A stretch of 64,000 bases of DNA, taken from UHGV virus genome UHGV-0214148. One strand, given 5' to 3'. Source of the stretch: a virus. The notes under the pieces are model-generated. The model saw only the letters and a list, made by a program, of their open reading frames with translations. It was not told the origin of the DNA and did not search any database. A program made the translations under genes and the position numbers. Positions 8,581 through 64,000 of this stretch are shown here, piece after piece. Within the stretch, counting starts at the first letter, position 1. Every line of letters starts with the position of its first letter.

Positions 8581-10356
8581 TTAACGGCCAATCTTCGCAA
8601 TGTCTTCTTCGGTTGCTTGGATCAACTCGTTGAGTTTTGGATTACGTACCATCACCAGTTGGGTGTTCGTCTTCATATACGGATTGAGAATACCCGATTT
8701 AAACGGTGATGATTTCGGAATGTAATACACGTTACCACATTCCAGATGAGATGCAGAGGCATGTTTTGTCCGGTCATTAAGGTTAACCGTCTTACCGCCC
8801 TTGCTGTTACGTTTGGATTCTGTTTCTGTCTGGCTGATAGCATGGGTTGAAACCCCCAGCACCATAGACTCGGTAGAAGCGTTGAAATAACTTACACCGC
8901 CATTGCCGGTAATGTTGCGTAATACCAGGCTAGTTACAATGTCTTTATTCAACGCGCTGCGTATCATGTTCGCACAAGACTCCGGTGTTCGATTTTCCGT
9001 TTGTCCCAAGTGGAAACGAATCGCTGCGATGGTAGGCGTAAAGCCACGCTCACCCAATAACAGGTAATCTGTTACGGTCAGACGTTTTCCATACATTGAC
9101 GGAATATCACCTTGTTTCGTAAGGCGCGTTCTCACCATCAACTTCGTCGCGTACCAGAAGAAATCAAACATATCCATATCGTCCGGGATATCGGGATCTG
9201 ACATCATTAACTCACCACGGAATGTTGAGTTAACGTAGCGTTCGCACTCCGTATAGTGTTTCGTCATGCTGTGTGCCAGTTCAATATCGGACGGTTTAAG
9301 TCCAACAATACTTCTCCCCAAAATCTCCCGCCAAATTGCGGAGGAATTCAGGTTTACAACATCGTCCTCCATTGCAAGTTCGTTAATCGCGGTAAACAAC
9401 GGCGGTAAAGGAACAACGTTGCCGTTTTTAATCGCTTGCTTTCCGCAATAATAGTGCGCTGCTTTAAAGAATGCAGAAATCGCCACGAGTAATAAGTGCT
9501 CGTTTTGATCCCATCCCGCTTTATCGAGATTTGGTAAAGCCTCTGCAGGAACCGTCACTACGTACATAATCGACCGATTATGTTTAGGCTCACCTGAACT
9601 GATTACTACTTTTTTATCGAGATCGATTTCAGGTACTTTGAATGCAGGATATATCTCCACATCCACGCCAGTATAACGTTTGATGGCTTCCTTAAATCCA
9701 TAACGCCCGAATAGCCAGTACATTAACGGCTTTTCGTCCGTGTCAGGATGTGTGGCGTTTTTGGCTTTAAACAAATTGTTTGTTCCGGGCAAGAACAACT
9801 CTTCTTTCTTCCCATTCACTAAAATCCGTACCGGGTGCTTACAGAATTTTAATGACGCTTTACGTTTAAAGTCAAAATTAACAAACACCCCGCCGTGCTC
9901 ACGACAGATACCCGGCTGATGAATAACAGGTGCAACATGATACGTTGTTCCGTAATAGTTCATCAACCCACCACGACGAATGAAAGGCAAGTTAATCGGT
10001 CTTGAGATTGGTCTTGAGTCTCCAGGAATACGGAACGACGACATGACCATATACGCATCGGTATTAGCGATTGACATCACACCACGACGCTTATCCATCC
10101 TGCTGCTCTCTGAACGAGACAGCTTATAGATAAAAGTTTCGAACGGCGACATTAAACGAACACCCAACACGGCCAAGCCTTCAGGAACACGAGGGTTCTC
10201 TACAGGATGGTAATCTAGCTCACGTTTCAAGATACGATGTACACGATCGTGAATACCATCTTTGGCTTGTGTATAACCGACTCCTTCCGCAATCGCACGG
10301 TTAAAGGGTACTATTTTACCACTCTCTTTAAGCTTTTTGATTGCATCTTTAAACAC
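8581..10356 (-). CDS. hypothetical protein (591 aa)
   Basis: ORF track; co-oriented block. Confidence 0.85.
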   Translation of the reverse strand: MFKDAIKKLKESGKIVPFNRAIAEGVGYTQAKDGIHDRVHRILKRELDYHPVENPRVPEGLAVLGVRLMSPFETFIYKLSRSESSRMDKRRGVMSIANTDAYMVMSSFRIPGDSRPISRPINLPFIRRGGLMNYYGTTYHVAPVIHQPGICREHGGVFVNFDFKRKASLKFCKHPVRILVNGKKEELFLPGTNNLFKAKNATHPDTDEKPLMYWLFGRYGFKEAIKRYTGVDVEIYPAFKVPEIDLDKKVVISSGEPKHNRSIMYVVTVPAEALPNLDKAGWDQNEHLLLVAISAFFKAAHYYCGKQAIKNGNVVPLPPLFTAINELAMEDDVVNLNSSAIWREILGRSIVGLKPSDIELAHSMTKHYTECERYVNSTFRGELMMSDPDIPDDMDMFDFFWYATKLMVRTRLTKQGDIPSMYGKRLTVTDYLLLGERGFTPTIAAIRFHLGQTENRTPESCANMIRSALNKDIVTSLVLRNITGNGGVSYFNASTESMVLGVSTHAISQTETESKRNSKGGKTVNLNDRTKHASASHLECGNVYYIPKSSPFKSGILNPYMKTNTQLVMVRNPKLNELIQATEEDIAKIGR

Positions 10357-14404: not shown

Positions 14405-15967
14405 ATGAATAACAAAATGATGTTGATAACCGCCTTAGCCACATTATACGCTGAAAGTCTTCTGACCGATCCTGAAAAGGACCACGACATCATAAGAAAA
14501 GTGCTGTTAGAGGCTAAGCTTCCTGATTACGCAGAAGAAGGTGACGAACGTGCCGCCCTCGTCGAAATCAAGGATATCATCACATCCATCATAGACGGCG
14601 GTATGCCTTACGACCACACAAACGTCATGAAACGTTTGAAACTGGCCACTACGCAAATACGTCCTCTATACGATACGATTACCAAATTCCTGGAAGATGA
14701 TATTCCAGAAGAACCAGAAGCACGCATCGAGCATCTTAATCGCCAAGTAGCACAATACTACTTTCAGTTACGTCAAGCTATTCAAGGCGTACAACTGAAA
14801 CAAAAATTGGGTCGTACGTTAGGCGCACTGAACGGCACTGAAACGCGTGTTGATTTACAAACGGCGCTCAACGACCTTAAGGATACCTTATCCACGTTCA
14901 GTGAACGCTCTCATAATAAGATTCCTTCTCTGGTAGGGGAATTGATTACTGACAATAAAGCACCCTTCGTACATGTATTCGACTCTATCAGTAAGAAAGC
15001 GGCAGGGAACGGGTTGCGTACGGGGTGGAAAGCAATTAACCAAATGCTTGGCTGTAACAAAGGGATCACTGAAGAACTCTGGCTGATGCCTGCTCTCCCC
15101 TTTAACTGTAAGTCATTATTCAGTTTATTGCTCTCTATTAGCATTCCTGTATTCAACACCCCAGAAAAGGTGATGGCAAATGTTAAAGGTGACTTACAAC
15201 CGGTTATTCTGGATTTAAGTTTAGAAAACGAATTAGATGTTAACTTGGCTTACGCGTATCAAGCACTTTACGGACACTTTGAAGGTACAGCTCCGGTAAT
15301 GGTTGCACCTGAAACGGCAACTGACGAAGAAAAAGCGCTACACAATGCACAAATGTCAGATTACCTCTGTAGTAAAATGCGGGCAAACGGTTGGGAGTAT
15401 ATTTTCCAAAAACACACAAACTCCGATTTTAAAATTCACTATTTGAATGATTTGATTTTAGATTTAAAACGTCGAGGTTATCATGTAGCTGGAATACGCG
15501 GAGACTATTTCGGTACTATCAGCAAAGCAGGACACGGTAACGGTATTGCGGGTAGTGACATTAAAGAAATTTATCGTATCGCGCGAAACATCCAAGTGGT
15601 ACGTAATCGTGGTTTCCTCTTAGCACCACACCAAATCTCACCAGAAGGCAAAAAATTAAAAGCACTCGACCCAGCAAGTTTCTGTAAGAGCTTACCTGGT
15701 CGTGGTCTTTACGACAACTGCTCTAGCTTAGACAACGAAGCTGACGGTGAGATGTATTTTAACAAACGTGTCGTCAGCGGACACAGCTATTTAGAAGTAC
15801 AACGCGGTAAACACCGTACCATTATTGACACCAAAGAAGCTTATCATTATACTGTAATACCTTTCCGCGATGTTGGCATTTTGCCATGGGATTGTGATAA
15901 AGAAGAAACTGTAACAGCCTCGTCGATTAACGTATTTACCGGCGGCATGGGTGACGAACTCTTTTGA
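14405..15967 (+). CDS. hypothetical protein (520 aa)
   Basis: ORF track; AAGGA Shine-Dalgarno 6 nt upstream; followed by hairpin 15972-15989. Confidence 0.85.
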   Translation: MNNKMMLITALATLYAESLLTDPEKDHDIIRKVLLEAKLPDYAEEGDERAALVEIKDIITSIIDGGMPYDHTNVMKRLKLATTQIRPLYDTITKFLEDDIPEEPEARIEHLNRQVAQYYFQLRQAIQGVQLKQKLGRTLGALNGTETRVDLQTALNDLKDTLSTFSERSHNKIPSLVGELITDNKAPFVHVFDSISKKAAGNGLRTGWKAINQMLGCNKGITEELWLMPALPFNCKSLFSLLLSISIPVFNTPEKVMANVKGDLQPVILDLSLENELDVNLAYAYQALYGHFEGTAPVMVAPETATDEEKALHNAQMSDYLCSKMRANGWEYIFQKHTNSDFKIHYLNDLILDLKRRGYHVAGIRGDYFGTISKAGHGNGIAGSDIKEIYRIARNIQVVRNRGFLLAPHQISPEGKKLKALDPASFCKSLPGRGLYDNCSSLDNEADGEMYFNKRVVSGHSYLEVQRGKHRTIIDTKEAYHYTVIPFRDVGILPWDCDKEETVTASSINVFTGGMGDELF

Positions 15968-22671: not shown

Positions 22672-24160
22672 TCTCTGTTCCTCGCATGGTAATAATGGTC
22701 GAGTTCAGCACCGTCAATAACACACGGGCTTCTACGTTCGGAATCAGTTTATTAATGTCATCGATAACACTCGGCGGTAACACCGGCTTATCCCACCACC
22801 AATCAGGAACGTCCCATTTCGGGAACAACCACTCAATTAATACTTTCGCTGCCTGTGGATATAACTGTAATGGCCAGAGGTTCATTCCACGCCAGTCAAA
22901 CATGACCGATTCGGTTAAGTAATAACCCTTATTTACTTTCAGGTCACGACCTTTAAGCGAAAACGTATTTCCTTCCCAATGGTAGAAACGCGGTTCGATA
23001 ATCTGTCCCTCTTCGAACAACTCGATACGGAAAACACCCGTCTGTCCTGTCGGGTCGATCGCACGACAATGTTCGATATACGGTAGCAACGCTTCGTTCC
23101 ATTCGTAAGGTAAATCTTCCGTAGACATCACCTTCGGCGATAACATGTTGTCCGGTTCAAAAACAACATCTGTACCGAAAATCGGTAAGAGTTTATCTTT
23201 AAGCGGGGAGTGCGTACGATGGAACTGTTCCGTGGGAGATAACAAATACGGGAGACGAATATACTGACGAGTTTCGTTAATCCACCAGGTTGAATCGAGA
23301 TTCTTCTGTTGTGGATGGCGGTAAACTAACTCCTCGTTAGATACCCACGGAGGATCTATCTCCGGCCAATATTCATCGGGCAGTGGTGTCTGATTGATGA
23401 TATACGGATACGATACCACAATCTCTTCAGGGCGCTGATAAGAGAAACGGATAACGAACGTTGCTTCCCAGTGGTTTTCATCTTTATCCCAAGCCGGTGT
23501 TTGAACGTCATATACCGTTTCTAAACGCGTAGGTGCGTAACGTACCGCAATGGTTTCCTGCCCCCCGGCAACATTGGCTGCACGAAATACGTCGGGCGTA
23601 AAATACGCTTTCAAATAAGCTTTAAAATCGTCAAACGTCGGTACTCGTGTTCCTGCAGCAACGTAGCAGGCATTCAACAACTTTAACGCGGGTTTAGGGA
23701 TATAATAGAACGCTTCTGACTCTGTCATGGTCGAATAACGGCCCATGTCCACTAATGAGTCTAAACGGTTCGTCCAGCGCAATAACTCATCACGTGAGGC
23801 ACTGGTACGTCGTAACGTTACTGTTACGTTATACATCGTTCTAACGGGCCAGGCGCGTACCTGATCGACACGGTTCTCAAAGAAGTACGGTTCAGCCTGC
23901 TGACCAACCTGACGATTGATTCTGGCCCACTCATCGCGTTCTTCTTCTACTTCAACGTAAACCTTTTCAGGTGAACTGTACTCTACTTCAGTACCGTCAC
24001 CTAAAGTAGAATCCGGTTGATGGGCGCTATTGAATTCATCGAGGAAAACAACCGCTGCTGTATCAATACCAGACTCATTAAGTACACGTTGTATAACGCC
24101 ATCGATTATTGGTTTGCGAATGGTCGCGTCTAACGACGGAATTTCAAAATACTGTTGCAT
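22652..24160 (-). CDS. hypothetical protein (502 aa)
   Basis: ORF track; AAGGAA Shine-Dalgarno 8 nt upstream of ATG 24160. Confidence 0.85.
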   Translation of the reverse strand: MQQYFEIPSLDATIRKPIIDGVIQRVLNESGIDTAAVVFLDEFNSAHQPDSTLGDGTEVEYSSPEKVYVEVEEERDEWARINRQVGQQAEPYFFENRVDQVRAWPVRTMYNVTVTLRRTSASRDELLRWTNRLDSLVDMGRYSTMTESEAFYYIPKPALKLLNACYVAAGTRVPTFDDFKAYLKAYFTPDVFRAANVAGGQETIAVRYAPTRLETVYDVQTPAWDKDENHWEATFVIRFSYQRPEEIVVSYPYIINQTPLPDEYWPEIDPPWVSNEELVYRHPQQKNLDSTWWINETRQYIRLPYLLSPTEQFHRTHSPLKDKLLPIFGTDVVFEPDNMLSPKVMSTEDLPYEWNEALLPYIEHCRAIDPTGQTGVFRIELFEEGQIIEPRFYHWEGNTFSLKGRDLKVNKGYYLTESVMFDWRGMNLWPLQLYPQAAKVLIEWLFPKWDVPDWWWDKPVLPPSVIDDINKLIPNVEARVLLTVLNSTIITMRGTENAQSEA

Positions 24161-24250
24161 TGGCTTGTTCCTTCGTTATAGTCATATCACAGGCGCGAAA
24201 TGAAAAAAAAAATAAAAGGGAACCGAAGCCCCCTTTTACGTTTAACCTGC

Positions 24251-24547
24251 CTATAACAGATAAGGTATACCTTCAAAGATAATCTCATCGTTAGCGAAGC
24301 CAACAGACGCTTCCTCACCCCCAGAGGTGGTTGCCCAAATCTCTGCCGCAAAACGCTGGTTGTTAATCAACAGCCCACGGTTGTTTTCGAACAACACTAT
24401 CAAGATCAACCTGACGCTTTTCTCTTGATGTAAACGGCGTATAAACGCGTGCTTTACAGGAGAAGGATACCAGGTGAAGCGCGCTATTTTCCCTTTCGCA
24501 ACTCTACCTAAAAAGAGCTTTTCTAAGGTTACAAACTCAGTGCCCAT
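24251..24547 (-). CDS. hypothetical protein (~98 aa; start uncertain)
   Basis: Track ORF 24251..24583 overlaps the DHFR 3' end; in-frame ATG at 24545-24547 reduces overlap to 11 nt. Confidence 0.45.
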   Translation of the reverse strand: MGTEFVTLEKLFLGRVAKGKIARFTWYPSPVKHAFIRRLHQEKSVRLILIVLFENNRGLLINNQRFAAEIWATTSGGEEASVGFANDEIIFEGIPYLL

Positions 24548-25073
24548 CTCTTTTCCAAATCTGATAATGCCAACGCGGAACATCGCTATCCGGTTTGGAA
24601 GCGTGCGTTAAGTTATAAACCAGTCTAAACGTGTTACGATCGATTTCAGGAAAGAACGCATCCGCACCATCGACTTTAACTTCTACGCGTGACAAGTAAA
24701 TCTTATCCACGTAAGGTAACGCCTGATGGTAAATTTCTGCACCACCGATAATAAAGATTTCTTTAGGATAACCCTTTTTCTCAACCTCAGTTTTGAGGAA
24801 CTCAATAATCGAACCCATTTCACCCTTAAGGTTAAGCACCCCATCGATTTCGGGCACACCACCAGGTCTTCTCGTCAACACGACATGGTGACGATTAGGC
24901 AGGGGTTTATGCCCTAACGATTCCCATGTCTTGCTTCCCATCACGATAACCTTACCTGATGTAAGTGCCTTAAAATTCTTTAAGTCATCGGGAATACGCC
25001 ACGGTAATTTATTGTCTTTCCCAATTTCGTTATTCAACCCAGCAGCAGCTATCATCGAAACTGTAATTGTCAT
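24537..25073 (-). CDS. folA: dihydrofolate reductase
   Basis: Track ORF trimmed to ATG 25071-25073 (MTITVSMIAAAGLNNEIG...). Classical DHFR motifs: LPW, VIMGSKTWES, PLPNR, IIGGAEIY, FFP. GGAG Shine-Dalgarno upstream; ATGA overlap with upstream gene. Confidence 0.9.
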   Translation of the reverse strand: MTITVSMIAAAGLNNEIGKDNKLPWRIPDDLKNFKALTSGKVIVMGSKTWESLGHKPLPNRHHVVLTRRPGGVPEIDGVLNLKGEMGSIIEFLKTEVEKKGYPKEIFIIGGAEIYHQALPYVDKIYLSRVEVKVDGADAFFPEIDRNTFRLVYNLTHASKPDSDVPRWHYQIWKRDGH

Positions 25074-25375
25074 TTCTTTATCTCCAGTGAGCCTCTTAAA
25101 TGGCGTATAAAATCTTTTCGGGTATACCGACTCGTTTTGTACTGATCGGCTAAATGGTAAACGGTAACGTACCGCCCTTTGGCTTCCATATGCAAATGCG
25201 TTATATTGCCATCGTTCGTAGGGAGTGGTCTGATCAGAGGAATCATCAAATCCCCATTCCAACCAGGTTCATTAAGTCTCGGTATCAGTAATCGAATGTC
25301 TAGCCGTTTTACGCAGTACACCACATTACTTTCCGGCAACTTAACAACACATATCGCATCGGCTTTGAGTTTCAT
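25070..25375 (-). CDS. hypothetical protein (101 aa)
   Basis: ORF track; coupled to DHFR start. Confidence 0.6.
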   Translation of the reverse strand: MKLKADAICVVKLPESNVVYCVKRLDIRLLIPRLNEPGWNGDLMIPLIRPLPTNDGNITHLHMEAKGRYVTVYHLADQYKTSRYTRKDFIRHLRGSLEIKK

Positions 25376-25377
25376 TT

Positions 25378-25929
25378 TTAACCTTCCTGGTATTGTCTAA
25401 TTCCGTAATCAGGTAGAATGTTTTCTACTGTGTTTTTCGGTACAACTGAAAGCTGGTTGTATAAATTCAACAAATCTTCACGCAGTAACTTCTGCTCGAT
25501 ATCAAGTTTATAACAAGCCAGTTCTTTTTCTAGCGGTTTAAGTAACACAACGCGTGTTTGAAAACCGTCAATAGGCTCAGGAACACGATAACCACGACGA
25601 CGGTAAAAGGTTTCCAGCTTCGAATAATCGCGAATGTATGTTTTCGTCAGTGTGGAATAACCTGCGTCTAACATAAACTTGTAGAACGGACGTAAAGCAA
25701 TGAAACGATCGTATTCCAGGTGTTCTGGAATATAGAATTCGTAATTGTTGTAAGTGAGCGTGGAGAGTTGAGAACCATTACAATGCGCACAGTTAATAAA
25801 AATAGCCAGTCCAATCATTACCGGACGTGGGACGATAAGGGTTTTATCGCCAAACCGAATACGAAAGATTTCCTGCTGTAAACTGGTTTCAGATACAACT
25901 TCAGCGTCTAAAATATTAAATTTGTTCAT
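25378..25929 (-). CDS. hypothetical protein (~183 aa)
   Basis: Track ORF 25378..25977; ATG at 25927-25929 (MNKFNILDAEVV...) has AGGAG Shine-Dalgarno 8 nt upstream and lies just after the upstream stop. Confidence 0.7.
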   Translation of the reverse strand: MNKFNILDAEVVSETSLQQEIFRIRFGDKTLIVPRPVMIGLAIFINCAHCNGSQLSTLTYNNYEFYIPEHLEYDRFIALRPFYKFMLDAGYSTLTKTYIRDYSKLETFYRRRGYRVPEPIDGFQTRVVLLKPLEKELACYKLDIEQKLLREDLLNLYNQLSVVPKNTVENILPDYGIRQYQEG

Positions 25930-29449: not shown

Positions 29450-30010
29450 TTAGGGACGTGCGATTTTCAAAAACACTGCTAACGACGAGATCATGTCGGA
29501 CAACCCGTTCGGGCGCGTCATCCAGCGTGCCAGCAGTTCATGGTCTGCATAAGATAAAAGACGTTTGCTACACTCAACAGATTGGTGAGCGGAGCCCATA
29601 TTACGTACAGTACCTCGGCGACCAAACGCAGCAGCTAACAGACGCGAGCCTAATGCACCCGTCTGTTCAACATTCTTCGTGTTACGAACATCGTTCATAT
29701 ACGACGACAGCAAAGTCGACCACTGCCCTAACGTCACATTACGTCGCTTACCATCCAGCAGGAAGGCTACGCTTTCGTTATAAAACGTATTAAAGGTAAA
29801 TCCGACCTGCGGATATTCGTCATATAATACCTGCTGCAATGAGTCAGCAGCCATCAGACGAAAGTACGGTAAAATAACGGCGGCGGCTTCCAGTGTTTTG
29901 TGAATAACCTCGTCATCGTGTGTGTCGATTGGGTTTTTCGATAAAATCGACATGTAGGATTTAATGCGCTCTACAGCAACATTAAATTCTGGACTATCGT
30001 GCTCAAACAT
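29450..30010 (-). CDS. hypothetical protein (186 aa)
   Basis: ORF track; co-oriented block. Confidence 0.75.
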   Translation of the reverse strand: MFEHDSPEFNVAVERIKSYMSILSKNPIDTHDDEVIHKTLEAAAVILPYFRLMAADSLQQVLYDEYPQVGFTFNTFYNESVAFLLDGKRRNVTLGQWSTLLSSYMNDVRNTKNVEQTGALGSRLLAAAFGRRGTVRNMGSAHQSVECSKRLLSYADHELLARWMTRPNGLSDMISSLAVFLKIARP

Positions 30011-30027
30011 TCGCCTCTCCTAACGGT

Positions 30028-30963
30028 TTACGCTAAACCGTATTTCTTTTCAAGACGCTCACGCTTGTGCTTGAGTTCCATCAGATGCTTTTCACTGATT
30101 TCAATCAGTTTCTCAATGTGGGCATCACCCTTACCTTCTGCGACTTGCTTTTTGTAAAGTAAGATACGCAGTTCCGCCGCTTTCGCCGCTTCTACACACT
30201 CGTCGTACTTATCCATCTGCCGTTCAGCGATATTCAAACGTACGCGCAATATCAGCGAGATTGGGAACGGTACACTGCTCATTCCCAGTGGGTCAACGGA
30301 GCTCGAACCGAACTGTTGCGCCAACTCACCGTAAGTTTCGTCGTTAAAGATCGCTTCAGGAATTTCCGCATAATCCGCTTTCAGTTTATTCAGCGGCGTT
30401 GCCAGCACACGGACAGCAATGCAGTAAGAAATAGAACGAGTATTGAGGTATTGAAGGTCATTCGGACCGACGCCTTTTACTTCAATATTCGAGCCTTCTA
30501 CGGCGGCTATTTCTTCTGCGGTTACGTAGTTAAGTAAGGTGGCACTGTAACCTGTAAAGAAGTCAATCAGGTCAAGCAGTCTGAGCACCGTTAATTTATT
30601 AAACGTCATTGAAGACGTGACTAACGCTTTACCAATGTCACGCGTAATACATTGGTCTAAGAAAGAACGCAATTGTAGCGTGTTTTCCATCGAGGCAACG
30701 ATGTATTCCAGCATCGAAGGATTACGGAGACCTTTGGCTTCCAGACCGGAATTCCGCAGGTATTTAACCAAATCATCCGACATGTCCTGCACCGTTTTCG
30801 ATTTAAACGGCTTGCCTTCTTTCGACGCTACCAGCTCTTGCAGAGACTGGAAACGCGGTAAAAGTTGTTCACCAATCGCATCACAGTTTGATGAGAGTTG
30901 GTTTTTCAAGTTTGTTGCTTCAAAGCTCGGCAACAACATAGCGAGCATATTCGGGATTGCCAT
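30028..30963 (-). CDS. hypothetical protein (311 aa)
   Basis: ORF track. Confidence 0.8.
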   Translation of the reverse strand: MAIPNMLAMLLPSFEATNLKNQLSSNCDAIGEQLLPRFQSLQELVASKEGKPFKSKTVQDMSDDLVKYLRNSGLEAKGLRNPSMLEYIVASMENTLQLRSFLDQCITRDIGKALVTSSMTFNKLTVLRLLDLIDFFTGYSATLLNYVTAEEIAAVEGSNIEVKGVGPNDLQYLNTRSISYCIAVRVLATPLNKLKADYAEIPEAIFNDETYGELAQQFGSSSVDPLGMSSVPFPISLILRVRLNIAERQMDKYDECVEAAKAAELRILLYKKQVAEGKGDAHIEKLIEISEKHLMELKHKRERLEKKYGLA

Positions 30964-30973
30964 GCCTTACCCC

Positions 30974-32080
30974 TTAAAGAACTGGCTGAGCGCCAGAGCG
31001 ATACGCTTCGATGATTTTATTTACATCGGCGCTACCAGACTTCGATTTACTAAAGTCAGATTTATCGAGTTCCTGAGAGCCGTTCTGACCACGGGTATAA
31101 ATAGTGACACGATTCCAGGTGGTGTCCACAACAACATAGTAGACGGTCAAGGTGTCTTTGAATACACGTTGACGGATATTGAAATCGTCGAATTCGCCAC
31201 CTAGCTGTGCGGTCAAACCGTCGATGGTGTCTTGAGAAACCACCATGACGGAAGATGCGTTATTGATAGACGGTGCCAGAGACAGCAAACCAGACAACCA
31301 GTTACCGTTCTTCTTCTCCATCATCTTACGGTAATAACCGGACTTATCGCGATAACGGTTCTTACGATATTCTTCTACCAGGTCGTTACAGAACGCGATG
31401 TCTTTTACGTAACTCAACGCACCAACACGTGCACGCAGCCAACGTTCCCAGAATGTTTTCGTCTGGTCACTGAACGCAATCAGCGTTTCAATTTGTTCGG
31501 TCGGTAAGGATTTCACATCCAAACGTAGGCGCATTGGGAGTTCGACTTTATTACCGTCACGTTCGAATGTTACTGAGAACATTTTCCCGTTGGACAACCC
31601 TTCTTGATCGAAAAGCAGTTTAATCGGTTCACCTTTCCCGCCACTGACCGAACCTTTTGATTCCTGGGCGACCCGTCGGGCAGATTCGCCGACTGCAATG
31701 CCGATTTTATCGTATGATGGTAAACCATAACGGGCAGATTCGCCGACTGCAAGCGCTGCTAAGCGGGAACCGCTGCGGACTGCGTTATCAAGTGCACTAC
31801 GACGTGTGCTGACCTGATCCAGGGTACCGATAATGTCAACATCCGGTACACCGGTTAACAGTGAGATAGCCGTTAATTGGTTTCCTGCCAGCAAAATTTG
31901 GATTTTCTCCAGAATTCCCGGAAGGTAATCTAAACCCAGCAGGCTTTGTTCGACTAAGGTAATGTGCTCGTTATAGAGCACTGAGTTAAATTCCTCCATC
32001 GACTCCGCACGCGAACGAAACAGCATGGGAAGTCTGGAGAGGAAAGAGACAACGCTTGTCTCAAACGTTTTTTCTAACAT
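30974..32080 (-). CDS. hypothetical protein (368 aa)
   Basis: ORF track; divergent from plus-strand gene at 32107. Confidence 0.8.
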   Translation of the reverse strand: MLEKTFETSVVSFLSRLPMLFRSRAESMEEFNSVLYNEHITLVEQSLLGLDYLPGILEKIQILLAGNQLTAISLLTGVPDVDIIGTLDQVSTRRSALDNAVRSGSRLAALAVGESARYGLPSYDKIGIAVGESARRVAQESKGSVSGGKGEPIKLLFDQEGLSNGKMFSVTFERDGNKVELPMRLRLDVKSLPTEQIETLIAFSDQTKTFWERWLRARVGALSYVKDIAFCNDLVEEYRKNRYRDKSGYYRKMMEKKNGNWLSGLLSLAPSINNASSVMVVSQDTIDGLTAQLGGEFDDFNIRQRVFKDTLTVYYVVVDTTWNRVTIYTRGQNGSQELDKSDFSKSKSGSADVNKIIEAYRSGAQPVL

Positions 32081-38535: not shown

Positions 38536-39903
38536 TTATTCGACATTAAACATGGCTGAAGCAATACGAAGGTCATTCGACATGTACTTCCCGATTGCAC
38601 GCTGATAGTCCACAGCAGCACGTGAACGACGACCCTTCGGCGTCAAGGTATTCCAGATAAACTGATACAGATTATCTTTGTCTTTTACCGTTTCTAACAG
38701 CTTGTCGATAACCGCAATACCATCCAGAATACGTTTACGTTGTTCGTTAGCAGCTTTCGTATTCTTGTCTTTAATCGTATTGAGTTCTTCAACGAGTGTA
38801 CGACGCATCGCCTCAAAACGCTGCTGCGGCGGATCGTAAATGGTGTTATCCGGGTCATTTAAGATCATTCCGAACGTCACAGAGATCACCGGAATAATTG
38901 GAATCGTAGAAGAAACTATCAGCGCAGTCACGCGGAAAAGCTCCAGTGTCAAATGGACACCCATGTTCATATACGCTGAGTTCCGCAGCAAATAGAACGG
39001 ACTGGTTTCCATTTTATACAGTGCCGAGGCCAGATAAGGAGCGCCACCAAAGCGGGAAGCAAAATCATCCGCAGCACGTTCCCATGTCCTGTTAGCAAAA
39101 CCTTGACTGCCGCTAATGTACGGACGATCTAATAACAGCTGTGTGACTAAGTGCATATAGACGTTTTCTTTTTTGTACTCAGTACAAATCGTTTCCGGCT
39201 GATTCACTTTCGTGTTCAGCATCTTTTCCACGTCTTTAACGATACGCAGGCGGACAGTTTGGTCTTCCGTTTCCATAATGCGGTTAGCCGCAGCATCTGC
39301 CAGCAAATCAGTCACTACAGTGCGCATCAGCGTACGGAAATAATAGTAGATGTGGCCCACCTCGTGAAGAATCACCGAAGCGATCTCCAGATCGGTCAAG
39401 TTTAGTTTTTCCAGCAGCACCGGGGTAAGGTAAAGCGGAGAACCTACTTTGCTTAGGTCACCACTGATTTTTGCACTGCTGTCATCGATTGTTGTGTTTA
39501 ACTCGTTTTCTTTGATGAACTTACTGTACATATCCAGGTCTTTGTTACCTGCGTACAGTGCGCGAGTCATCGATGCGATGATTGGGCTGTTTGCATCCAA
39601 TTTCGGTGGTTCTACACCTGCAAAAGCAACGTCAGCAAGACCCAGTTCGCCACCGTTCTTAAAGTGAATCGTAATGCCGATATTCTTAAATACCCAATCC
39701 GAAACCCCGGCACTTTCGTAGCCCGCAGGACTGAAATCGCCTGCCCCACGAAACTTAGCAATAACATCAGCCAATTCTGCCAGCTTCTTTTTGTCTTGGA
39801 ATTTAATCGATTCTGCGGCTACAACCTTTGCATCCGCAACTGATGCAATGTGATTTTGCCAATATCCCATTTGTGTTTCCTTTTGAGAAATTACATTACC
39901 CAC
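38536..39903 (-). CDS. putative zinc metalloprotease (HExxH; M48/M56-like)
   Basis: ORF track; ILHEVGHIYYY (HExxH) followed ~75 aa later by WERAADDFA (ExxADxxA-like third-ligand motif). Confidence 0.6.
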   Translation of the reverse strand: MGNVISQKETQMGYWQNHIASVADAKVVAAESIKFQDKKKLAELADVIAKFRGAGDFSPAGYESAGVSDWVFKNIGITIHFKNGGELGLADVAFAGVEPPKLDANSPIIASMTRALYAGNKDLDMYSKFIKENELNTTIDDSSAKISGDLSKVGSPLYLTPVLLEKLNLTDLEIASVILHEVGHIYYYFRTLMRTVVTDLLADAAANRIMETEDQTVRLRIVKDVEKMLNTKVNQPETICTEYKKENVYMHLVTQLLLDRPYISGSQGFANRTWERAADDFASRFGGAPYLASALYKMETSPFYLLRNSAYMNMGVHLTLELFRVTALIVSSTIPIIPVISVTFGMILNDPDNTIYDPPQQRFEAMRRTLVEELNTIKDKNTKAANEQRKRILDGIAVIDKLLETVKDKDNLYQFIWNTLTPKGRRSRAAVDYQRAIGKYMSNDLRIASAMFNVE

Positions 39904-39941
39904 AAATCAGTATAGCAGCCGCTAGATTTGAGAGTGAAATC

Positions 39942-41723
39942 ATGAATAACTATTACGCACCGGAAGACGTTATTGCCAAGGAGTGCAAGTTTGTTTCTTA
40001 CGCAACCGATCAGCAGAAAGAAAACGACTTCGTGCTCATAAAGGAGGTCGTCCATACTAAAGATGGCAGATATATCCCACGAATTGTCATGCGTGAAAAT
40101 CTGAAACGTCCCATCTACATTACATTACCACAACATCGTAACCACAAGGAAAAGAAGGAATACGAGGAACGTAGTAAGTGTCAGGAGTATTTAACAACGG
40201 ATGTAATGATGTCCTCAACCATACAGATGGGTTTGGGGATTCGTTTTCCCGACAAAAAGAAACCACTCCGCCAAGTTTGCACTTCACCGTTTGTTTACTG
40301 GGCCGATTTGCCCATTACGAGCTGGATTAAAGAAAAGTACATGCGTAAATGGCCTAATGCTGTTTCACCCAACCGCATCTGTGTATACGACGTGGAAACT
40401 CGAGAAGAAGACAAATCTCGAGACCCCTGGATTATGAGTTTTGTTTTAGACGACGAAATTCATTTCTTTGCTACGAAAGACTATGTCACACGCTGCGGAC
40501 GTGAAAACTTTGAAGCGCGACTCGTCAATCGTGCTCAGGAATTGCTTTCTAAAATCGCTTTTCGTGGGAAAGACGAGAACGACAATCCTATCGTTAAATA
40601 CAAAAACGTTATCGACGGTTACAAAATCTTCGTTTACGAATGTCTCAATTCGGGCTGTTGTATTCAACGGATGTTTGAGGAAATTCACCCTCGTCTCCCT
40701 GACTTACTCGTCGCATGGAACCACGAGTTCGATATTTCACGTATGTTAGAAGCTTTAGAAGCAGCGGGCATTCCACCGGAAGACGTCTTCTGTCATCCAG
40801 ACGTGCCGAAACAGTACCGTCGTGTCTACTTTAAGAAAGACGAAGCATCGAAGAAAACGGAATCAAAGTCACTAACAAAAGCACCTTCACAGCAGTGGCA
40901 CATTCTTTATTGTACGGCGTCATTCTACTGTGTAGATGCGATGTGTCTATTCCGTTCATTGCGTGTACACGAAGGGCAACGTCCTTCTTACAAACTTAAC
41001 GCGATACTGGAAACCGAGTTGGGTTTAAACAAGTTAGACTTACCGGATTTACCCTACGAGGAAAAATTGGAATGGCACTTAAAGGCACAGAAAGATTTCC
41101 CGTTAGAATACTGCGTTTATAACATCTTCGATAACCTGATGATTGTTCTGCTTGATAAAAAGACGAACGATCTGTCTTCTGCTATTTCAGTGTTGGCAGG
41201 TTATTCGATGTACGATATCTTCCCTTCACTGCCGAAGCGAATCTGTATTGCGTACACGTACTACCTCTACGAACAAGGTCTGGTTATCGGCTGTGTTGGT
41301 AGCGCGATGCGTAACGATTTTGACAATGAAGTCATTGGGACAGACGGTTGGATTGTTACATTGACCGCGTGTATGAACGCAGAGAATGGCCTACGAAACA
41401 TCATCAAGGAGGTTGATGATTTCTACACGGCTTTCCGTGGACAAACCGCAGATGCTGACTTAACCCAGGCATACCCATCCGCAACAAACATGATGAACCA
41501 GTCTCGTGAGACGACGTTAATCGAGTTATTAAGCATTCACGGTGTTCCTGAAGAAGTACGGCGTCGCGTCGGTATTAACCTTACTGCAGGTCGCGTTAAC
41601 GCAATGGAGATCGCGACAGATTTCTTCCTATTACCCGATAAAAACGACGTCTTAGAAGCTTTTCTACGTCGACAAGGAGAAGCAATTACCGATCCTTTTG
41701 AATACATCAAAGCCGCAAAGTAA
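39942..41723 (+). CDS. putative 3'-5' exonuclease (DnaQ / family-B polymerase exonuclease-domain-like)
   Basis: Track ORF 39828..41723 trimmed to ATG 39942 (MNNYYAPEDV) to avoid overlapping the divergent gene; motifs VYDVETRE (Exo I DxE), WNHEFD (Exo II), YNIFDNL (Exo III YxxxD). No polymerase motifs A/C seen. Confidence 0.55.
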   Translation: MNNYYAPEDVIAKECKFVSYATDQQKENDFVLIKEVVHTKDGRYIPRIVMRENLKRPIYITLPQHRNHKEKKEYEERSKCQEYLTTDVMMSSTIQMGLGIRFPDKKKPLRQVCTSPFVYWADLPITSWIKEKYMRKWPNAVSPNRICVYDVETREEDKSRDPWIMSFVLDDEIHFFATKDYVTRCGRENFEARLVNRAQELLSKIAFRGKDENDNPIVKYKNVIDGYKIFVYECLNSGCCIQRMFEEIHPRLPDLLVAWNHEFDISRMLEALEAAGIPPEDVFCHPDVPKQYRRVYFKKDEASKKTESKSLTKAPSQQWHILYCTASFYCVDAMCLFRSLRVHEGQRPSYKLNAILETELGLNKLDLPDLPYEEKLEWHLKAQKDFPLEYCVYNIFDNLMIVLLDKKTNDLSSAISVLAGYSMYDIFPSLPKRICIAYTYYLYEQGLVIGCVGSAMRNDFDNEVIGTDGWIVTLTACMNAENGLRNIIKEVDDFYTAFRGQTADADLTQAYPSATNMMNQSRETTLIELLSIHGVPEEVRRRVGINLTAGRVNAMEIATDFFLLPDKNDVLEAFLRRQGEAITDPFEYIKAAK

Positions 41724-41770
41724 AAAAAAATAAACGTTACCCTACTCCCATCGGGAGTAGGGTAATACTT
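41721..41770. terminator. bidirectional intrinsic terminator (stem shared with 36361-36412)
   Basis: A-run 41721-41733, stem ttaccctactccc (41737-41749) / gggagtagggtaa (41753-41765), T-rich tail. Confidence 0.8.
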
Positions 41771-42280
41771 TTATGCCGCGTTGAAGCAGTAAGCCAGTAA
41801 GTGTTGCAGCTCTGGATCGGTCACACGTTGTACCAAACGACCAACGTTGTCACGCTGAGCGAAGTTTGCTTTATCCTGGGAATTTGCGAAACGTACTAAC
41901 ATATTGATGAACACGACGTATGTTTCACGTTCGGCGGAATCGTAAAACCAATCTAAATGGTAGTTTACATTCGGATAGTAGAAGATACCGCGCTTGTGTT
42001 TAATTGCAGCTTCAACGAACACGTTGAAAGCATCAATGAACGCCTGACCGCGTAATTCAAATAACGAACGGAACGATTGATGCAGCTTACGGAAAGCGTC
42101 GTCAGCTTCTGGGGTATCTTTCGGTTTATTTTGGCTAATTGCCCCGCCAGCCTCATCGAGCTGAGTAGCAATAAGTCGCACCTGGTACGCATCATCCTGA
42201 CTGTAAGTTACCGCATTTTCCTCAGCGCGTCTTACCGCTGATGGGCGTTCATCTTGTGTCGAAATATCTTTAGTTGCCAT
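41771..42280 (-). CDS. hypothetical protein (169 aa)
   Basis: ORF track. Confidence 0.7.
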   Translation of the reverse strand: MATKDISTQDERPSAVRRAEENAVTYSQDDAYQVRLIATQLDEAGGAISQNKPKDTPEADDAFRKLHQSFRSLFELRGQAFIDAFNVFVEAAIKHKRGIFYYPNVNYHLDWFYDSAERETYVVFINMLVRFANSQDKANFAQRDNVGRLVQRVTDPELQHLLAYCFNAA

Positions 42281-42293
42281 TGGCTAATAATCC

Positions 42294-43595
42294 TTACGTA
42301 ATGTGGATCGATGGATTAAATTCGTGTACCACTGTCTCTTTACCGTGCATCGCGGCCATTGCCACGGACATAACGTTAGAGAACGCCGAGGATATATCCG
42401 CAGCGATTGCGCGAGGTTCTTCCCCTTTATTCGCAGACGAACACGCTGTGCAGGTGTCGATGTGGCCATACTGACATAAGATGGGTCGGCGTAACCGCAC
42501 CACTTTACCTAACTGCTGTTTTAAATATTCCTCAGTCAGTGGTGTCAGTTTACCATTAACCATCGCGTTCATCCCAACGTAACGTTTTACGTTATCATCG
42601 GTAATCACAACTGGATACGTTAATTTCGTTCCACAGTCACCAGGGACGATTCGGTGGTTCTGGAAAATCATCTGGATAATACGTACCTGCTCACCCCCTT
42701 TCGCTGTTTCCGCACCACGAGAGAACGAACCTTCGCGGATAGAGTTGAATTTCGCGACCAGGTTTTCCATCCCCGCCTTATCAACTTCAACTAATGCGTT
42801 CGGAATGAGCGTATAATGCCCCCCTTCCTGAAAAGACGATTCAATACCGTACATCAGCATTAATTTACGTCGACGCATCCGCGATTTCGGCGAGTTATAA
42901 AACTCAATAGATTGGTCACCCGACAACCACTCTTTATCTAACTCATCCAGCGCTTTTTCAATCTTAACGATAACGGCAGGATCGTCTAACTCGTCCTTAT
43001 GCTTTAATAGCAACGCATCACGTATTTTATACGCATCAGGATGCACCGTGAGACTTCGTAACGTACCGGTTGGTGCAATACCTGACGTGAGCGGTGCGAG
43101 CTCGTGTAAGCCGCTTACAAAGCGCTCAATCATACTCGGTCGAATTGCACCTTCGTTTTCTGGCTCATCGGTTTCATGGTCTAAACAACGACGATGCATC
43201 TCTTTGCGATATTCCAACGGGTTTTGTGAAATCGCCAGATAGGGTAAGCGTGTACCAAATGCATACCAGATAACAATCCAGTTAAAAACGTATCGTCCTA
43301 CTGTCGTGGGAATAGGACCGTCTAAACCGGGATAATCGTCAGGGCGTAGCTCGAACTGTTCTTCAGGGATAAACAGCTCCTGGTCCTTTACACCGTCAGT
43401 AATCGGTTCCCAACTGCCCTTACCGTCTTCTACAGCGTAATAATGCGGTAAGCCGTCGATATACGTTATATCAAACGCTTCGGGTTCTTCGCGTCCTGTT
43501 GGAAACACCGACATGTTAAAAATAGCAATACGCCAAACCAGACGTCGCCAAGCTTCTGCTTTACATGCCGCTACTAAGAACTCAAACCTCGTCAT
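42294..43595 (-). CDS. hypothetical protein (~433 aa)
   Basis: Track ORF starts at TTG 43613; ATG at 43593-43595 has GAGGAGG Shine-Dalgarno ~10 nt upstream. Confidence 0.8.
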   Translation of the reverse strand: MTRFEFLVAACKAEAWRRLVWRIAIFNMSVFPTGREEPEAFDITYIDGLPHYYAVEDGKGSWEPITDGVKDQELFIPEEQFELRPDDYPGLDGPIPTTVGRYVFNWIVIWYAFGTRLPYLAISQNPLEYRKEMHRRCLDHETDEPENEGAIRPSMIERFVSGLHELAPLTSGIAPTGTLRSLTVHPDAYKIRDALLLKHKDELDDPAVIVKIEKALDELDKEWLSGDQSIEFYNSPKSRMRRRKLMLMYGIESSFQEGGHYTLIPNALVEVDKAGMENLVAKFNSIREGSFSRGAETAKGGEQVRIIQMIFQNHRIVPGDCGTKLTYPVVITDDNVKRYVGMNAMVNGKLTPLTEEYLKQQLGKVVRLRRPILCQYGHIDTCTACSSANKGEEPRAIAADISSAFSNVMSVAMAAMHGKETVVHEFNPSIHIT

Positions 43596-44939: not shown

Positions 44940-46898
44940 CTAGCCAATAACGGCGTATTGATCCCTCAGATACCGCTGAATCTCGGACACCACTCGAGAT
45001 AGCTCGAAAAAAACGCGGTCCGGTGAGATCGTCACGATACCACGGTAAGTGCCTTCTTTCTCGCCTTCATGCGTTTTGCCGCAAGACGGACATTTCTGTC
45101 CCATATATCCGAACACCGCCAAACGACTACGTTCGTTATAGTTCGCTGCAGCCGCCTCAAACTCATACACATAGCGACGATCGGAGGACAGCTCCTCCAG
45201 AATCTGGATAATCTTATCAGTATCCGTTTCTGTGGTGCTTACCTCACGAATCTCATCGTCCTGCACAACTTCTTCACTTACTGTAATGGATTCCACCATG
45301 TACGCGTAACGTGTTAGGCGACGTGCTTCGGTAATGAGCCGGAGATGATTTTCACGCTCACGTTCGGTACCTTTCTCAGCCAACGCAGATGTAGACGCGG
45401 TGTTGTTCTCTTCCACCCAACGTTCTGTATTGTCAAAGAACTTACCTAACGTCGAACGGCCGAATTTAACGGTAATACCATCGCTTACGAATGTCGCAGA
45501 CGGATCTTTCAGATGTTCTTCAACAAACTTACGTTGCTCCAAACGACTGATCGTAACGTCTTCTTTACCGCGCTGCTGGGCCCACAGGCTACGCTGCATA
45601 TCGGTGTAAAGTGACGTACCCATACGGATACAACGAGCCAAGTTCAGACGAATGTCTTCCTGATAGCCACAACCCTCATGGCCACAGATTAACGTCCACG
45701 GTAAACCACCCGGATATTTCGCTTGCATCACACCAATCAGCAACAGCCAATAATCCGCAAGATCGATAGTATCCAGCAGCACGGTCTTCATGTCGTTCCC
45801 TTCGCAATCCAACGTGCAGTCGGTGACGAAGCGTAACGCAAATTCAACCATATGGCTTAAATAGATACCTGAAGACGCAGATAACATCAGACCGTAAGTC
45901 TGCATACCGATTTTTGCAGTTTCCAGGGTCAGCTGAATATCAAAATCACAGATTTCGCGTTCTAACGGTGCGCGGAAACCTACGAAGATGCCCGTTGCGG
46001 GTAGCCATACCCAGTTAGGGATACCTGACTTACGGCGACGACGAAGTGCCGCAATAGCACCAGTGTGTTGACTGTTACGTGGTGTAATGAAGCCGACCGG
46101 CTTAGACATTCCCGGCAACTGCACACGCTGTTCCCAGGCGGTATCTTCACGAGACAATGCACCATCGAACGCTTGCTGTTGGTTTTGTAAACGCGGCGGC
46201 ATCATGTTCAATGCACGATACAAACGCTCGTACAGGTCACGCTGTTCTTCCGATTTAAACAGGAGCCGACCATCATTACCACGCGGAACGCTGGAAAAGA
46301 ATTTCTTCAGTTCTCTACCGATGAGATTAGGATCTTCACGTAAACCAATCAGTGTATTAAACTCCGTCAGAATTTGACCCGGGTCGTCTTCAGGCAATTC
46401 ACTGAACTCTTCGTGCGGTGCTTGCGTACCGAAATTCACATGGTGTTCACCAGGTTGTTCTTTCACTGCCGGTGACGCTTCAGGTTCGTGATCAGCGGCA
46501 ATCTTCGAACCTTCAATCGCTTGAGGAACGTAAGGTTCTTCGGCTTTCTTTTCTACCACAGGCTCAGACTTGTGTGTGGCAGGGGCAGCATCAGTTTGCT
46601 GAATAACCGGCTCAACGACGACGGGTTCTGGCTCGGTAATTGTCACTACCGGAGCAGGTTCTTCTTCATAAACCGGTTTAGGTAGAACGGGTTCTTCAGC
46701 AGGTTTCGCTTTTACGAGATTGTGATACATCTCTTCTGCTTGAGCAAATGAAAATTGGGGATTACTGCGCTTGATTGCCATAATCCCATCATCGGCGGAC
46801 ATCGTAGACAAGTCAACCTCAGGCACGACGACGTGAGGTGCGTCTTCCTGAGCCCGCCGACGCCCATTGCCCGGGCGTTGGTCTAAAGTATCTGACAT
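44940..46898 (-). CDS. hypothetical protein (652 aa) with Pro/Glu/Val-rich N-terminal region
   Basis: ORF track; N-terminal ~150 aa low complexity (PEPVVVEPV...EPVVEKKAEEPYVPQ). Confidence 0.85.
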   Translation of the reverse strand: MSDTLDQRPGNGRRRAQEDAPHVVVPEVDLSTMSADDGIMAIKRSNPQFSFAQAEEMYHNLVKAKPAEEPVLPKPVYEEEPAPVVTITEPEPVVVEPVIQQTDAAPATHKSEPVVEKKAEEPYVPQAIEGSKIAADHEPEASPAVKEQPGEHHVNFGTQAPHEEFSELPEDDPGQILTEFNTLIGLREDPNLIGRELKKFFSSVPRGNDGRLLFKSEEQRDLYERLYRALNMMPPRLQNQQQAFDGALSREDTAWEQRVQLPGMSKPVGFITPRNSQHTGAIAALRRRRKSGIPNWVWLPATGIFVGFRAPLEREICDFDIQLTLETAKIGMQTYGLMLSASSGIYLSHMVEFALRFVTDCTLDCEGNDMKTVLLDTIDLADYWLLLIGVMQAKYPGGLPWTLICGHEGCGYQEDIRLNLARCIRMGTSLYTDMQRSLWAQQRGKEDVTISRLEQRKFVEEHLKDPSATFVSDGITVKFGRSTLGKFFDNTERWVEENNTASTSALAEKGTERERENHLRLITEARRLTRYAYMVESITVSEEVVQDDEIREVSTTETDTDKIIQILEELSSDRRYVYEFEAAAANYNERSRLAVFGYMGQKCPSCGKTHEGEKEGTYRGIVTISPDRVFFELSRVVSEIQRYLRDQYAVIG

Positions 46899-63587: not shown

Positions 63588-63872
63588 TTACCCCGCCAAT
63601 TTTAATAATTCCGAGTCAAGCGCGATACCGGCTTCCAAGTCCTCTTCAGTATCCTGGAAGAAACTGTTTATGTTGCTGATATTCTCGTTATGGAGAATCA
63701 TGCAACTCGAAACCTCGTCCACATTCGTGCTTGACATAAACCCGTTGTCTGGGCGATAAGCCATGCCCAGTTCCATTTCAATCTGGTCGATTGCCAATCT
63801 GCATTGTAACTGGTCGCCATCGAAATCCTGTTTGTCCACTCCATTCCTTTTGGAGCAGGTGTGCAATGACAC
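63588..63872 (-). CDS. hypothetical small protein (94 aa) carrying a DFDGD motif
   Basis: ORF track; starts at GTG, in-frame stop 13 nt upstream; contains KQDFDGDQLQCRLAIDQIEMEL. Confidence 0.45.
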   Translation of the reverse strand: MSLHTCSKRNGVDKQDFDGDQLQCRLAIDQIEMELGMAYRPDNGFMSSTNVDEVSSCMILHNENISNINSFFQDTEEDLEAGIALDSELLKLAG

Positions 63873-64000
63873 CCTCCCATGCTTTCACATGGGCACAGAC
63901 TATATCATAACCGTAGGTATTGCTACCCGTAGGTCTCCCCCACTTCGCCGCTAAACTAAGCAGCTACTCTACTCGGTTTTACCCTTTCGATAGTCGTTGA

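Follow-up and report, generated by a model that had tools for sequence, protein, structure and literature searches.

The stretch of viral DNA analysed here (UHGV virus genome UHGV-0214148; 64 kb, hereafter the window) contains an open reading frame that extends on the (+) strand from an ATG at position 39942 to a stop codon at 41723. The reading frame is real, and only the size of ~594 aa originally assigned to it needs a small adjustment, since the 594 codons include the stop and the protein has 593 aa. On the evidence of the reading frame itself, PHROG 3011, tblastn and synteny, it is annotated as the very probable DNAP^N gene, ortholog of SPN3US gp44, encoding the N-terminal subunit (N subunit) of a split family-B DNA polymerase (PolB). 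A TTG at 39828 would offer a longer start, but it is unsupported and was dropped because the homologues begin at the same MNN... as the protein read from ATG 39942. A candidate Shine-Dalgarno-like GAGAG (39930-39934, +) can be read off the sequence 7 nt 5' of this ATG.

The gene is a lone (+) gene, both of its neighbours being encoded on the (-) strand. Between it and the convergent gene on its 3' side a hairpin with a 14-bp perfect stem is found at 41736-41766, with the sequence GTTACCCTACTCCC-ATC-GGGAGTAGGGTAA and T-rich tracts on either side, which looks like a putative bidirectional intrinsic terminator. The divergent upstream neighbour (38536-39903, -) encodes a protein of 455 aa that belongs to PHROG 2767 and whose label in Asesino is 'putative virion structural protein'; it also matches Peptidase_M48 below threshold (E 0.004, 17.4 bits vs a cut-off of 20.3) around the sequence HEVGH, of the HExxH type, and may be a zinc metalloprotease. 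Elsewhere in the window, the gene at 44940-46898 (-) encodes a 652-aa protein of PHROG 8054 whose N-terminal third is rich in proline and glutamate and which has a cysteine motif, CPSCG, near its C-terminus; the Pfam scan gave no match for it.

The protein encoded at 39942-41723 falls in PHROG 3011 'DNA polymerase' (E 1.3e-249, aa 3-583). Its top tblastn match is gp61 of Erwinia phage Asesino, labelled 'DNA polymerase' (79% identity), followed by the SPN3US-like Salmonella phages, with 74.7% identity by tblastn to the SPN3US gene at 41236-43002. Gene order around the ORF is the same as in Asesino gp44-gp98, and the genes common to the window and this phage include those for multisubunit RNA polymerase, a divergent DnaB, the major head protein and SbcD. 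The divergent DnaB-like replicative helicase is encoded at 14405-15967 (+) and is recognised both by Pfam PF20307 divDNAB (E 2e-125) and by PHROG 3213; helicases of this divDNAB type are paired with the divergent polymerase by Iyer et al. (PMC7824862). This gene content and order place the window in a PhiKZ-related jumbo phage of the SPN3US/Erwinia Asesino type.

Public E. coli-associated assemblies hold a 94% identical protein. In the closest complete relative, NZ_CP173450.1, a DNA copy of the gene is 85% identical and is accompanied by the same neighbouring genes. That record is deposited as 'plasmid p98232-contig_4' of E. coli strain 98232, a circular molecule of 221,873 bp from a urine isolate; in view of the same neighbouring genes and the 85% identity to the window, it is therefore evidently a jumbo phage genome of the window's group.

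The family comprises 1504 representative clusters and has a length class of ~560-600 aa. No fused relative of ~1300 aa, uniting N and C subunits, was found among the best 150 of the 1504 representatives. A metagenomic homologue of 894 aa was evaluated as a possible fusion with the C subunit and rejected, the part beyond the usual end at ~570 aa being only an acidic, repeat-like C-terminal extension of ~330 aa. The public labels of the N subunit are inconsistent, namely hypothetical protein, DNA polymerase, T4-like DNA polymerase and RNA polymerase beta subunit, because no Pfam or NCBIfam model exists for it and it goes undetected by DNA_pol_B_exo1; for the C subunit, Pfam offers the curated model PF20286. 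The lack of any Pfam or NCBIfam match, together with the many records that say hypothetical protein, would suit a degenerate or inactive PolB remnant devoid of a replication role, such as a decaying paralogue. Nonetheless, a remnant is highly unlikely for a protein that spans 1504 representative clusters, keeps its catalytic residues strictly conserved and matches 300 of 50,697 phage records by tblastn, 287 of them at a coverage of at least 80%, with full-length matches spread over phages of many host genera.

Three exonuclease motifs, DVETRE, WNHEFD and YNIFDNL, had been noted in the right order in the original prediction, and they are confirmed here by their positions, by conservation in 28 homologues and by colinearity with Exo I-III of RB69 gp43. 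In the alignment of these homologues, which reaches down to 29% identity and underlies the conservation figures for this protein, D150 and E152 of Exo I (DVETRE, aa 150-155, 40389-40406, +) are invariant, as are Y393 and D397 of Exo III (YNIFDNL, aa 393-399, 41118-41138, +), and W259, N260 and D264 of Exo II (WNHEFD, aa 259-264, 40716-40733, +) are conserved in at least 90%. Such residue conservation argues that the three motifs are not due to chance. In the family profile, Exo I pairs with FDIEV of RB69, Exo II with WNVESFD, and YNIFD of Exo III with YNIID.

The relationship to family-B polymerases was reached only by family-profile and fold searches. Searches of Pfam, NCBIfam and the PDB with the single protein returned nothing meaningful (Integrin_A_Ig_3, E 0.17; CDK7, E 1.5), and the Pfam models DNA_pol_B_exo1 and DNA_pol_B fail to detect it. 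When the family profile was compared with all PDB sequences, 57 matches were obtained at E <=1, all but one of them family-B DNA polymerases. RB69 gp43 was the top one, with a whole-sequence E of only 0.001, and it is colinear with the profile over 91-231, 273-380 and 406-430; in addition, PHROG 262 and 2062, both T4-like PolB families, match aa 320-431 of the protein. The AlphaFold model has a mean pLDDT of 80.9, with values >90 over most of aa 1-450, and the corresponding segment (39942-41291, +) is confidently modelled as the PolB N-terminal domain followed by the 3'-5' exonuclease domain. Foldseek with this model agrees (E 8e-13), its best structural match again being RB69 gp43, and the protein is thus predicted to adopt a PolB-type N-terminal and exonuclease fold. 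The profile and structure checks put forward with the original prediction hence converge on a family-B polymerase, and no non-nuclease family was assigned. The protein carries a complete DEDD 3'-5' proofreading exonuclease, with Exo I-III all present and the activity itself being predicted.

Polymerase motifs had been reported as missing from the ORF, a claim that stands in part. Motifs B (KxxxNSxYG) and C (YGDTDS) are absent from it, but a motif of the DxxSLYPS type is present as DADLTQAYPS at aa 504-513 (nt 41451-41480), followed by ...N.S.ET. As a useful correction to the earlier reading, the ORF does hold a polymerase motif, which by its residues is a divergent motif A with Q-A replacing S-L. 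The motif A block DADLTQAYPSATNMMNQSRET (aa 504-524, 41451-41513, +) is assigned from its invariant residues, its alignment with RB69 and its chance expectation. Residues D504, D506, Y511, P512, T524 and E528 are invariant in the 28 homologues, and the block aligns with RB69 406-430 with 10 of the 25 residues identical, aa 506-513 corresponding to RB69 411-418, D506 to the catalytic D411 and Y511 to the sugar gate Y416. The pattern D[LIVM]T..YP[ST] has a chance count of 1e-4 in a protein of this composition, and of 1e-9 once the N.S.ET extension is included. Taken by itself, the motif A stretch is weak in the profile-to-PDB alignment (0.4 bits), and the gap from Exo III to motif A is of 109 residues vs 84 in RB69.

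Motif A would be embedded in a palm-domain fragment with a conserved tail (aa 455-566, 41304-41639, +), which is modelled with low confidence alone and includes the best conserved stretches of the protein, conservation being 0.64 over aa 500-531 and 0.63 over aa 532-566 vs 0.53 over the whole protein. In the AlphaFold monomer, pLDDT falls below 50 at aa 455-531 and 544-553, and aa 455-553 are the sole part left unplaced. That this region is conserved yet unmodelled is as expected if a palm strand can fold only together with the remainder of its sheet.

The same model can be read differently, since the exonuclease module is complete and folds confidently alone and the motif A region does not, as if the protein were the stand-alone proofreading 3'-5' exonuclease that the original prediction also contemplated, working in trans with a complete polymerase and retaining the motif A-like block as a relic or docking element. 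Two earlier studies lean the same way: Kazlauskas and Venclovas 2011 (PMC3201878) treat the exonuclease as a protein of its own and assign the catalytic aspartates, D229 and D398 of phage EL, both to the polymerase chain, and Iyer et al. 2021 likewise have the exonuclease separate and both catalytic aspartates on the polymerase chain. A relic or docking element is difficult to reconcile with D504, D506, Y511 and P512 being invariant down to 29% identity, and with the block and its tail forming the best conserved part of the protein; because of this invariant motif A and conserved palm fragment, the stand-alone exonuclease is disfavoured. The features of the partner protein also bear on this alternative.

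In relatives, motifs B and C reside on a separate PF20286 protein, which makes the ORF product one subunit of a PolB rather than a complete enzyme. In the rest of the window, where an ORF for the palm, fingers and thumb had been suggested as a search target, none was found within the 64 kb: a regex scan of its six frames for motifs B and C gave no candidate, tblastn with the SPLA1a partner gave no match in it, and PHROG and Pfam scans detected no DNA polymerase or RNase H protein among 20 of its other ORFs. The product of 8581-10356 (-; 591 aa, PHROG 2943, Asesino gp94, 'polymerase') was considered as the missing half and discarded, its sequence being devoid of PolB motifs; its counterpart in PhiKZ is gp123, a beta-like subunit of the non-virion RNA polymerase, to which it is homologous.

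The partner of SPLA1a, labelled 'DNA polymerase', is encoded at 23592-25871, with 759 aa counted from a GTG start, and belongs to PHROG 2927 (E 2.5e-301) and to Pfam PF20286 'Divergent Family B DNA polymerase' (E 6e-284). In NZ_CP173450.1 the partner gene lies 26.8 kb downstream of the ortholog of the N-subunit gene and adjoins a gene for a 'DNA polymerase-associated SH3 family protein'; PGAP labels the N subunit of this record 'hypothetical protein' and its C subunit 'family B DNA polymerase'. The N- and C-subunit genes of relatives are ~27 kb apart and on opposite strands. The end of the window cuts an RNA polymerase beta-like gene (63612-63875, -), of which the C-terminal ~88 residues match SPLA1a 29608-31032 with 51% identity, and in SPLA1a this gene is 3.7 kb from that of the partner. 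From synteny with SPLA1a and NZ_CP173450.1, we infer that the source phage also has a partner gene, which would be at ~68.5-70.8 kb in window coordinates, past the window end.

Conservation in the partner was evaluated over 28 partner homologues. Invariant residues R127, K131, K157, N160, N161, S164 and G165 correspond to the fingers helices and motif B, S418-T423 (SDTDST) to motif C, and K497, H498 and Y499 to the KxY motif. Profile positions 85-165 of the partner pair with a part of Pol zeta that comprises the hairpin before the fingers, the fingers themselves and motif B; its aa 94-189 align to positions 98-190 of the 453 of Pfam DNA_pol_B, a model in which the site of motif A presumably precedes the aligned part, so that the latter would start after motif A. 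The best PDB fold match of the partner is also RB69 gp43, and PHROG 262 (T4-like PolB, 856 positions) is matched colinearly by both proteins (N subunit, 249-353; partner, 576-701). Among the 28 homologues, no conserved acidic residue was found N-terminal to the partner fingers. A single further Asp is invariant, D288; it falls between two helices of the insert that follows motif B (aa 179-337, entirely helical), as part of an invariant Y285-x-G287-D288 located between motifs B and C. D288 possibly corresponds to D229 of phage EL, which PMC3201878 took for the 'motif A' Asp.

A complete polymerase chain, as the stand-alone exonuclease would need at its side, is hardly what these features describe, considering that (i) the partner is without a conserved acidic residue before the fingers, (ii) its D288 comes after motif B, out of PolB order, (iii) its alignment to PolB begins only after motif A, and (iv) the PhiKZ core consists of DNAP^N and DNAP^C stably bound 1:1 (PMC13648687). 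On this balance a free-standing exonuclease is considered unlikely. The two genes being far apart, and split-intein PolBs as well as endonuclease-fractured PolB genes being known in archaea and phages, the halves might instead be spliced into one polypeptide by a split intein once translated, the arrangement known from the PolB of Nanoarchaeum equitans. This has almost no chance of being correct, given that no Hint or intein family was detected in the N subunit (Pfam E <=10) or in the partner (E <=0.1), that neither the C-terminal tail of the former nor the N-terminus of the latter shows intein blocks, and that the PhiKZ enzyme is reported as a two-subunit complex (PMC13648687).

The reading preferred here, which is held with high confidence, is that the protein encoded at 39942-41723 is the N-terminal subunit of a heterodimeric T4-like family-B replicative polymerase of a PhiKZ-related (chimallivirus) jumbo phage. 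This agrees with the other branch of the original prediction, in which the ORF gives a polymerase its N-terminal part and another gene provides the catalytic half, as reported for some jumbo phages; that branch gains support from the orthology with SPN3US gp44, from the PhiKZ complex and from the match of both halves to the RB69 fold. In such an enzyme, the N chain would contribute the PolB N-terminal domain, the proofreading exonuclease and a first piece of the palm with motif A, providing the catalytic Asp D506 and the ribose-discriminating Y511, and would also proofread. The C chain of ~760 aa (DNAP^C, SPN3US gp18, PF20286) would supply motif B within the fingers, the thumb, motif C (SDTDS) and the KxY motif and, in addition, a long insert made of helices. 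Both chains are expected to assemble 1:1, with the C-terminal fragment of the N chain (aa ~455-566) folding only against its partner. From the alignments of both chains we infer that the polymerase is split within the palm, past motif A but before the fingers, at about RB69 430-460. A split at this point makes a composite polymerase active site probable, to which the N chain would bring motif A and the C chain motifs B and C.

These assignments have a practical consequence for annotation. A DNAP^N label that mentions motif A guards against calling the protein a free-standing exonuclease, and equally against calling the PF20286 protein a self-sufficient polymerase.

A split PolB N subunit is already known from PhiKZ and SPN3US, and in this respect nothing biological is added here. 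SPN3US gp44 and gp18 have been described as a split-subunit T4-like DNA polymerase (PMC5694885), the original report of such a split being that of Cornelissen 2012 for phage OBP, as cited in PMC5105663 and PMC5694885. According to the 2026 study (PMC13648687), DNAP^N and DNAP^C associate stably at 1:1 into the PhiKZ core polymerase, which shows B-family homology, was solved by cryo-EM at 2.1 A and is helped by an RNase H/clamp-like subunit, Rhc. PhiKZ DNAP^N and SPN3US gp44 share family, syntenic position and length class with the protein of the window, and no functional difference from them was detected. The reading of a composite site differs in emphasis from PMC3201878 and PMC7824862 in placing the motif A Asp on the exonuclease chain. 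It is rather doubtful that a composite chimallivirus site, in which the 'exonuclease' subunit gives the motif A Asp and the steric-gate Tyr in trans and the break is unlike the catalogued PolB splits, represents a novelty, because the 2026 PhiKZ structure most likely shows it already.

With stand-alone DEDD (DnaQ-like) exonucleases, such as Pol III epsilon, TREX1 and ExoI, the protein has in common the RNase H-like core and the acidic residues, but it falls outside that class by possessing a PolB N-terminal domain and motif A. Compared with RB69/T4 gp43, which is a single chain, the N chain ends ~80 residues after motif A, a second protein carrying the thumb, the fingers and what remains of the palm, and motif A reads DLTQAYPS instead of the DLTSLYPS of RB69 (FDLTSLYPS). 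The sequences are also so dissimilar that neither Pfam DNA_pol_B_exo1 nor DNA_pol_B picks up the protein of the window. Other PolB splits are on record (PMC3061061), located at the fingertip in the T4-like phages 133, 44R, 31, 25 and 65, in the palm after the fingers in Methanothermobacter, and between the N-terminal and palm domains in RM378. The break deduced here, between motif A and the fingers, matches none of these positions, and the genes are far apart and not adjacent; both features, however, characterise the known family in general and are not peculiar to this window. In the enzyme considered here and in those catalogued splits alike, two polypeptides with separate genes have to come together to make the PolB.
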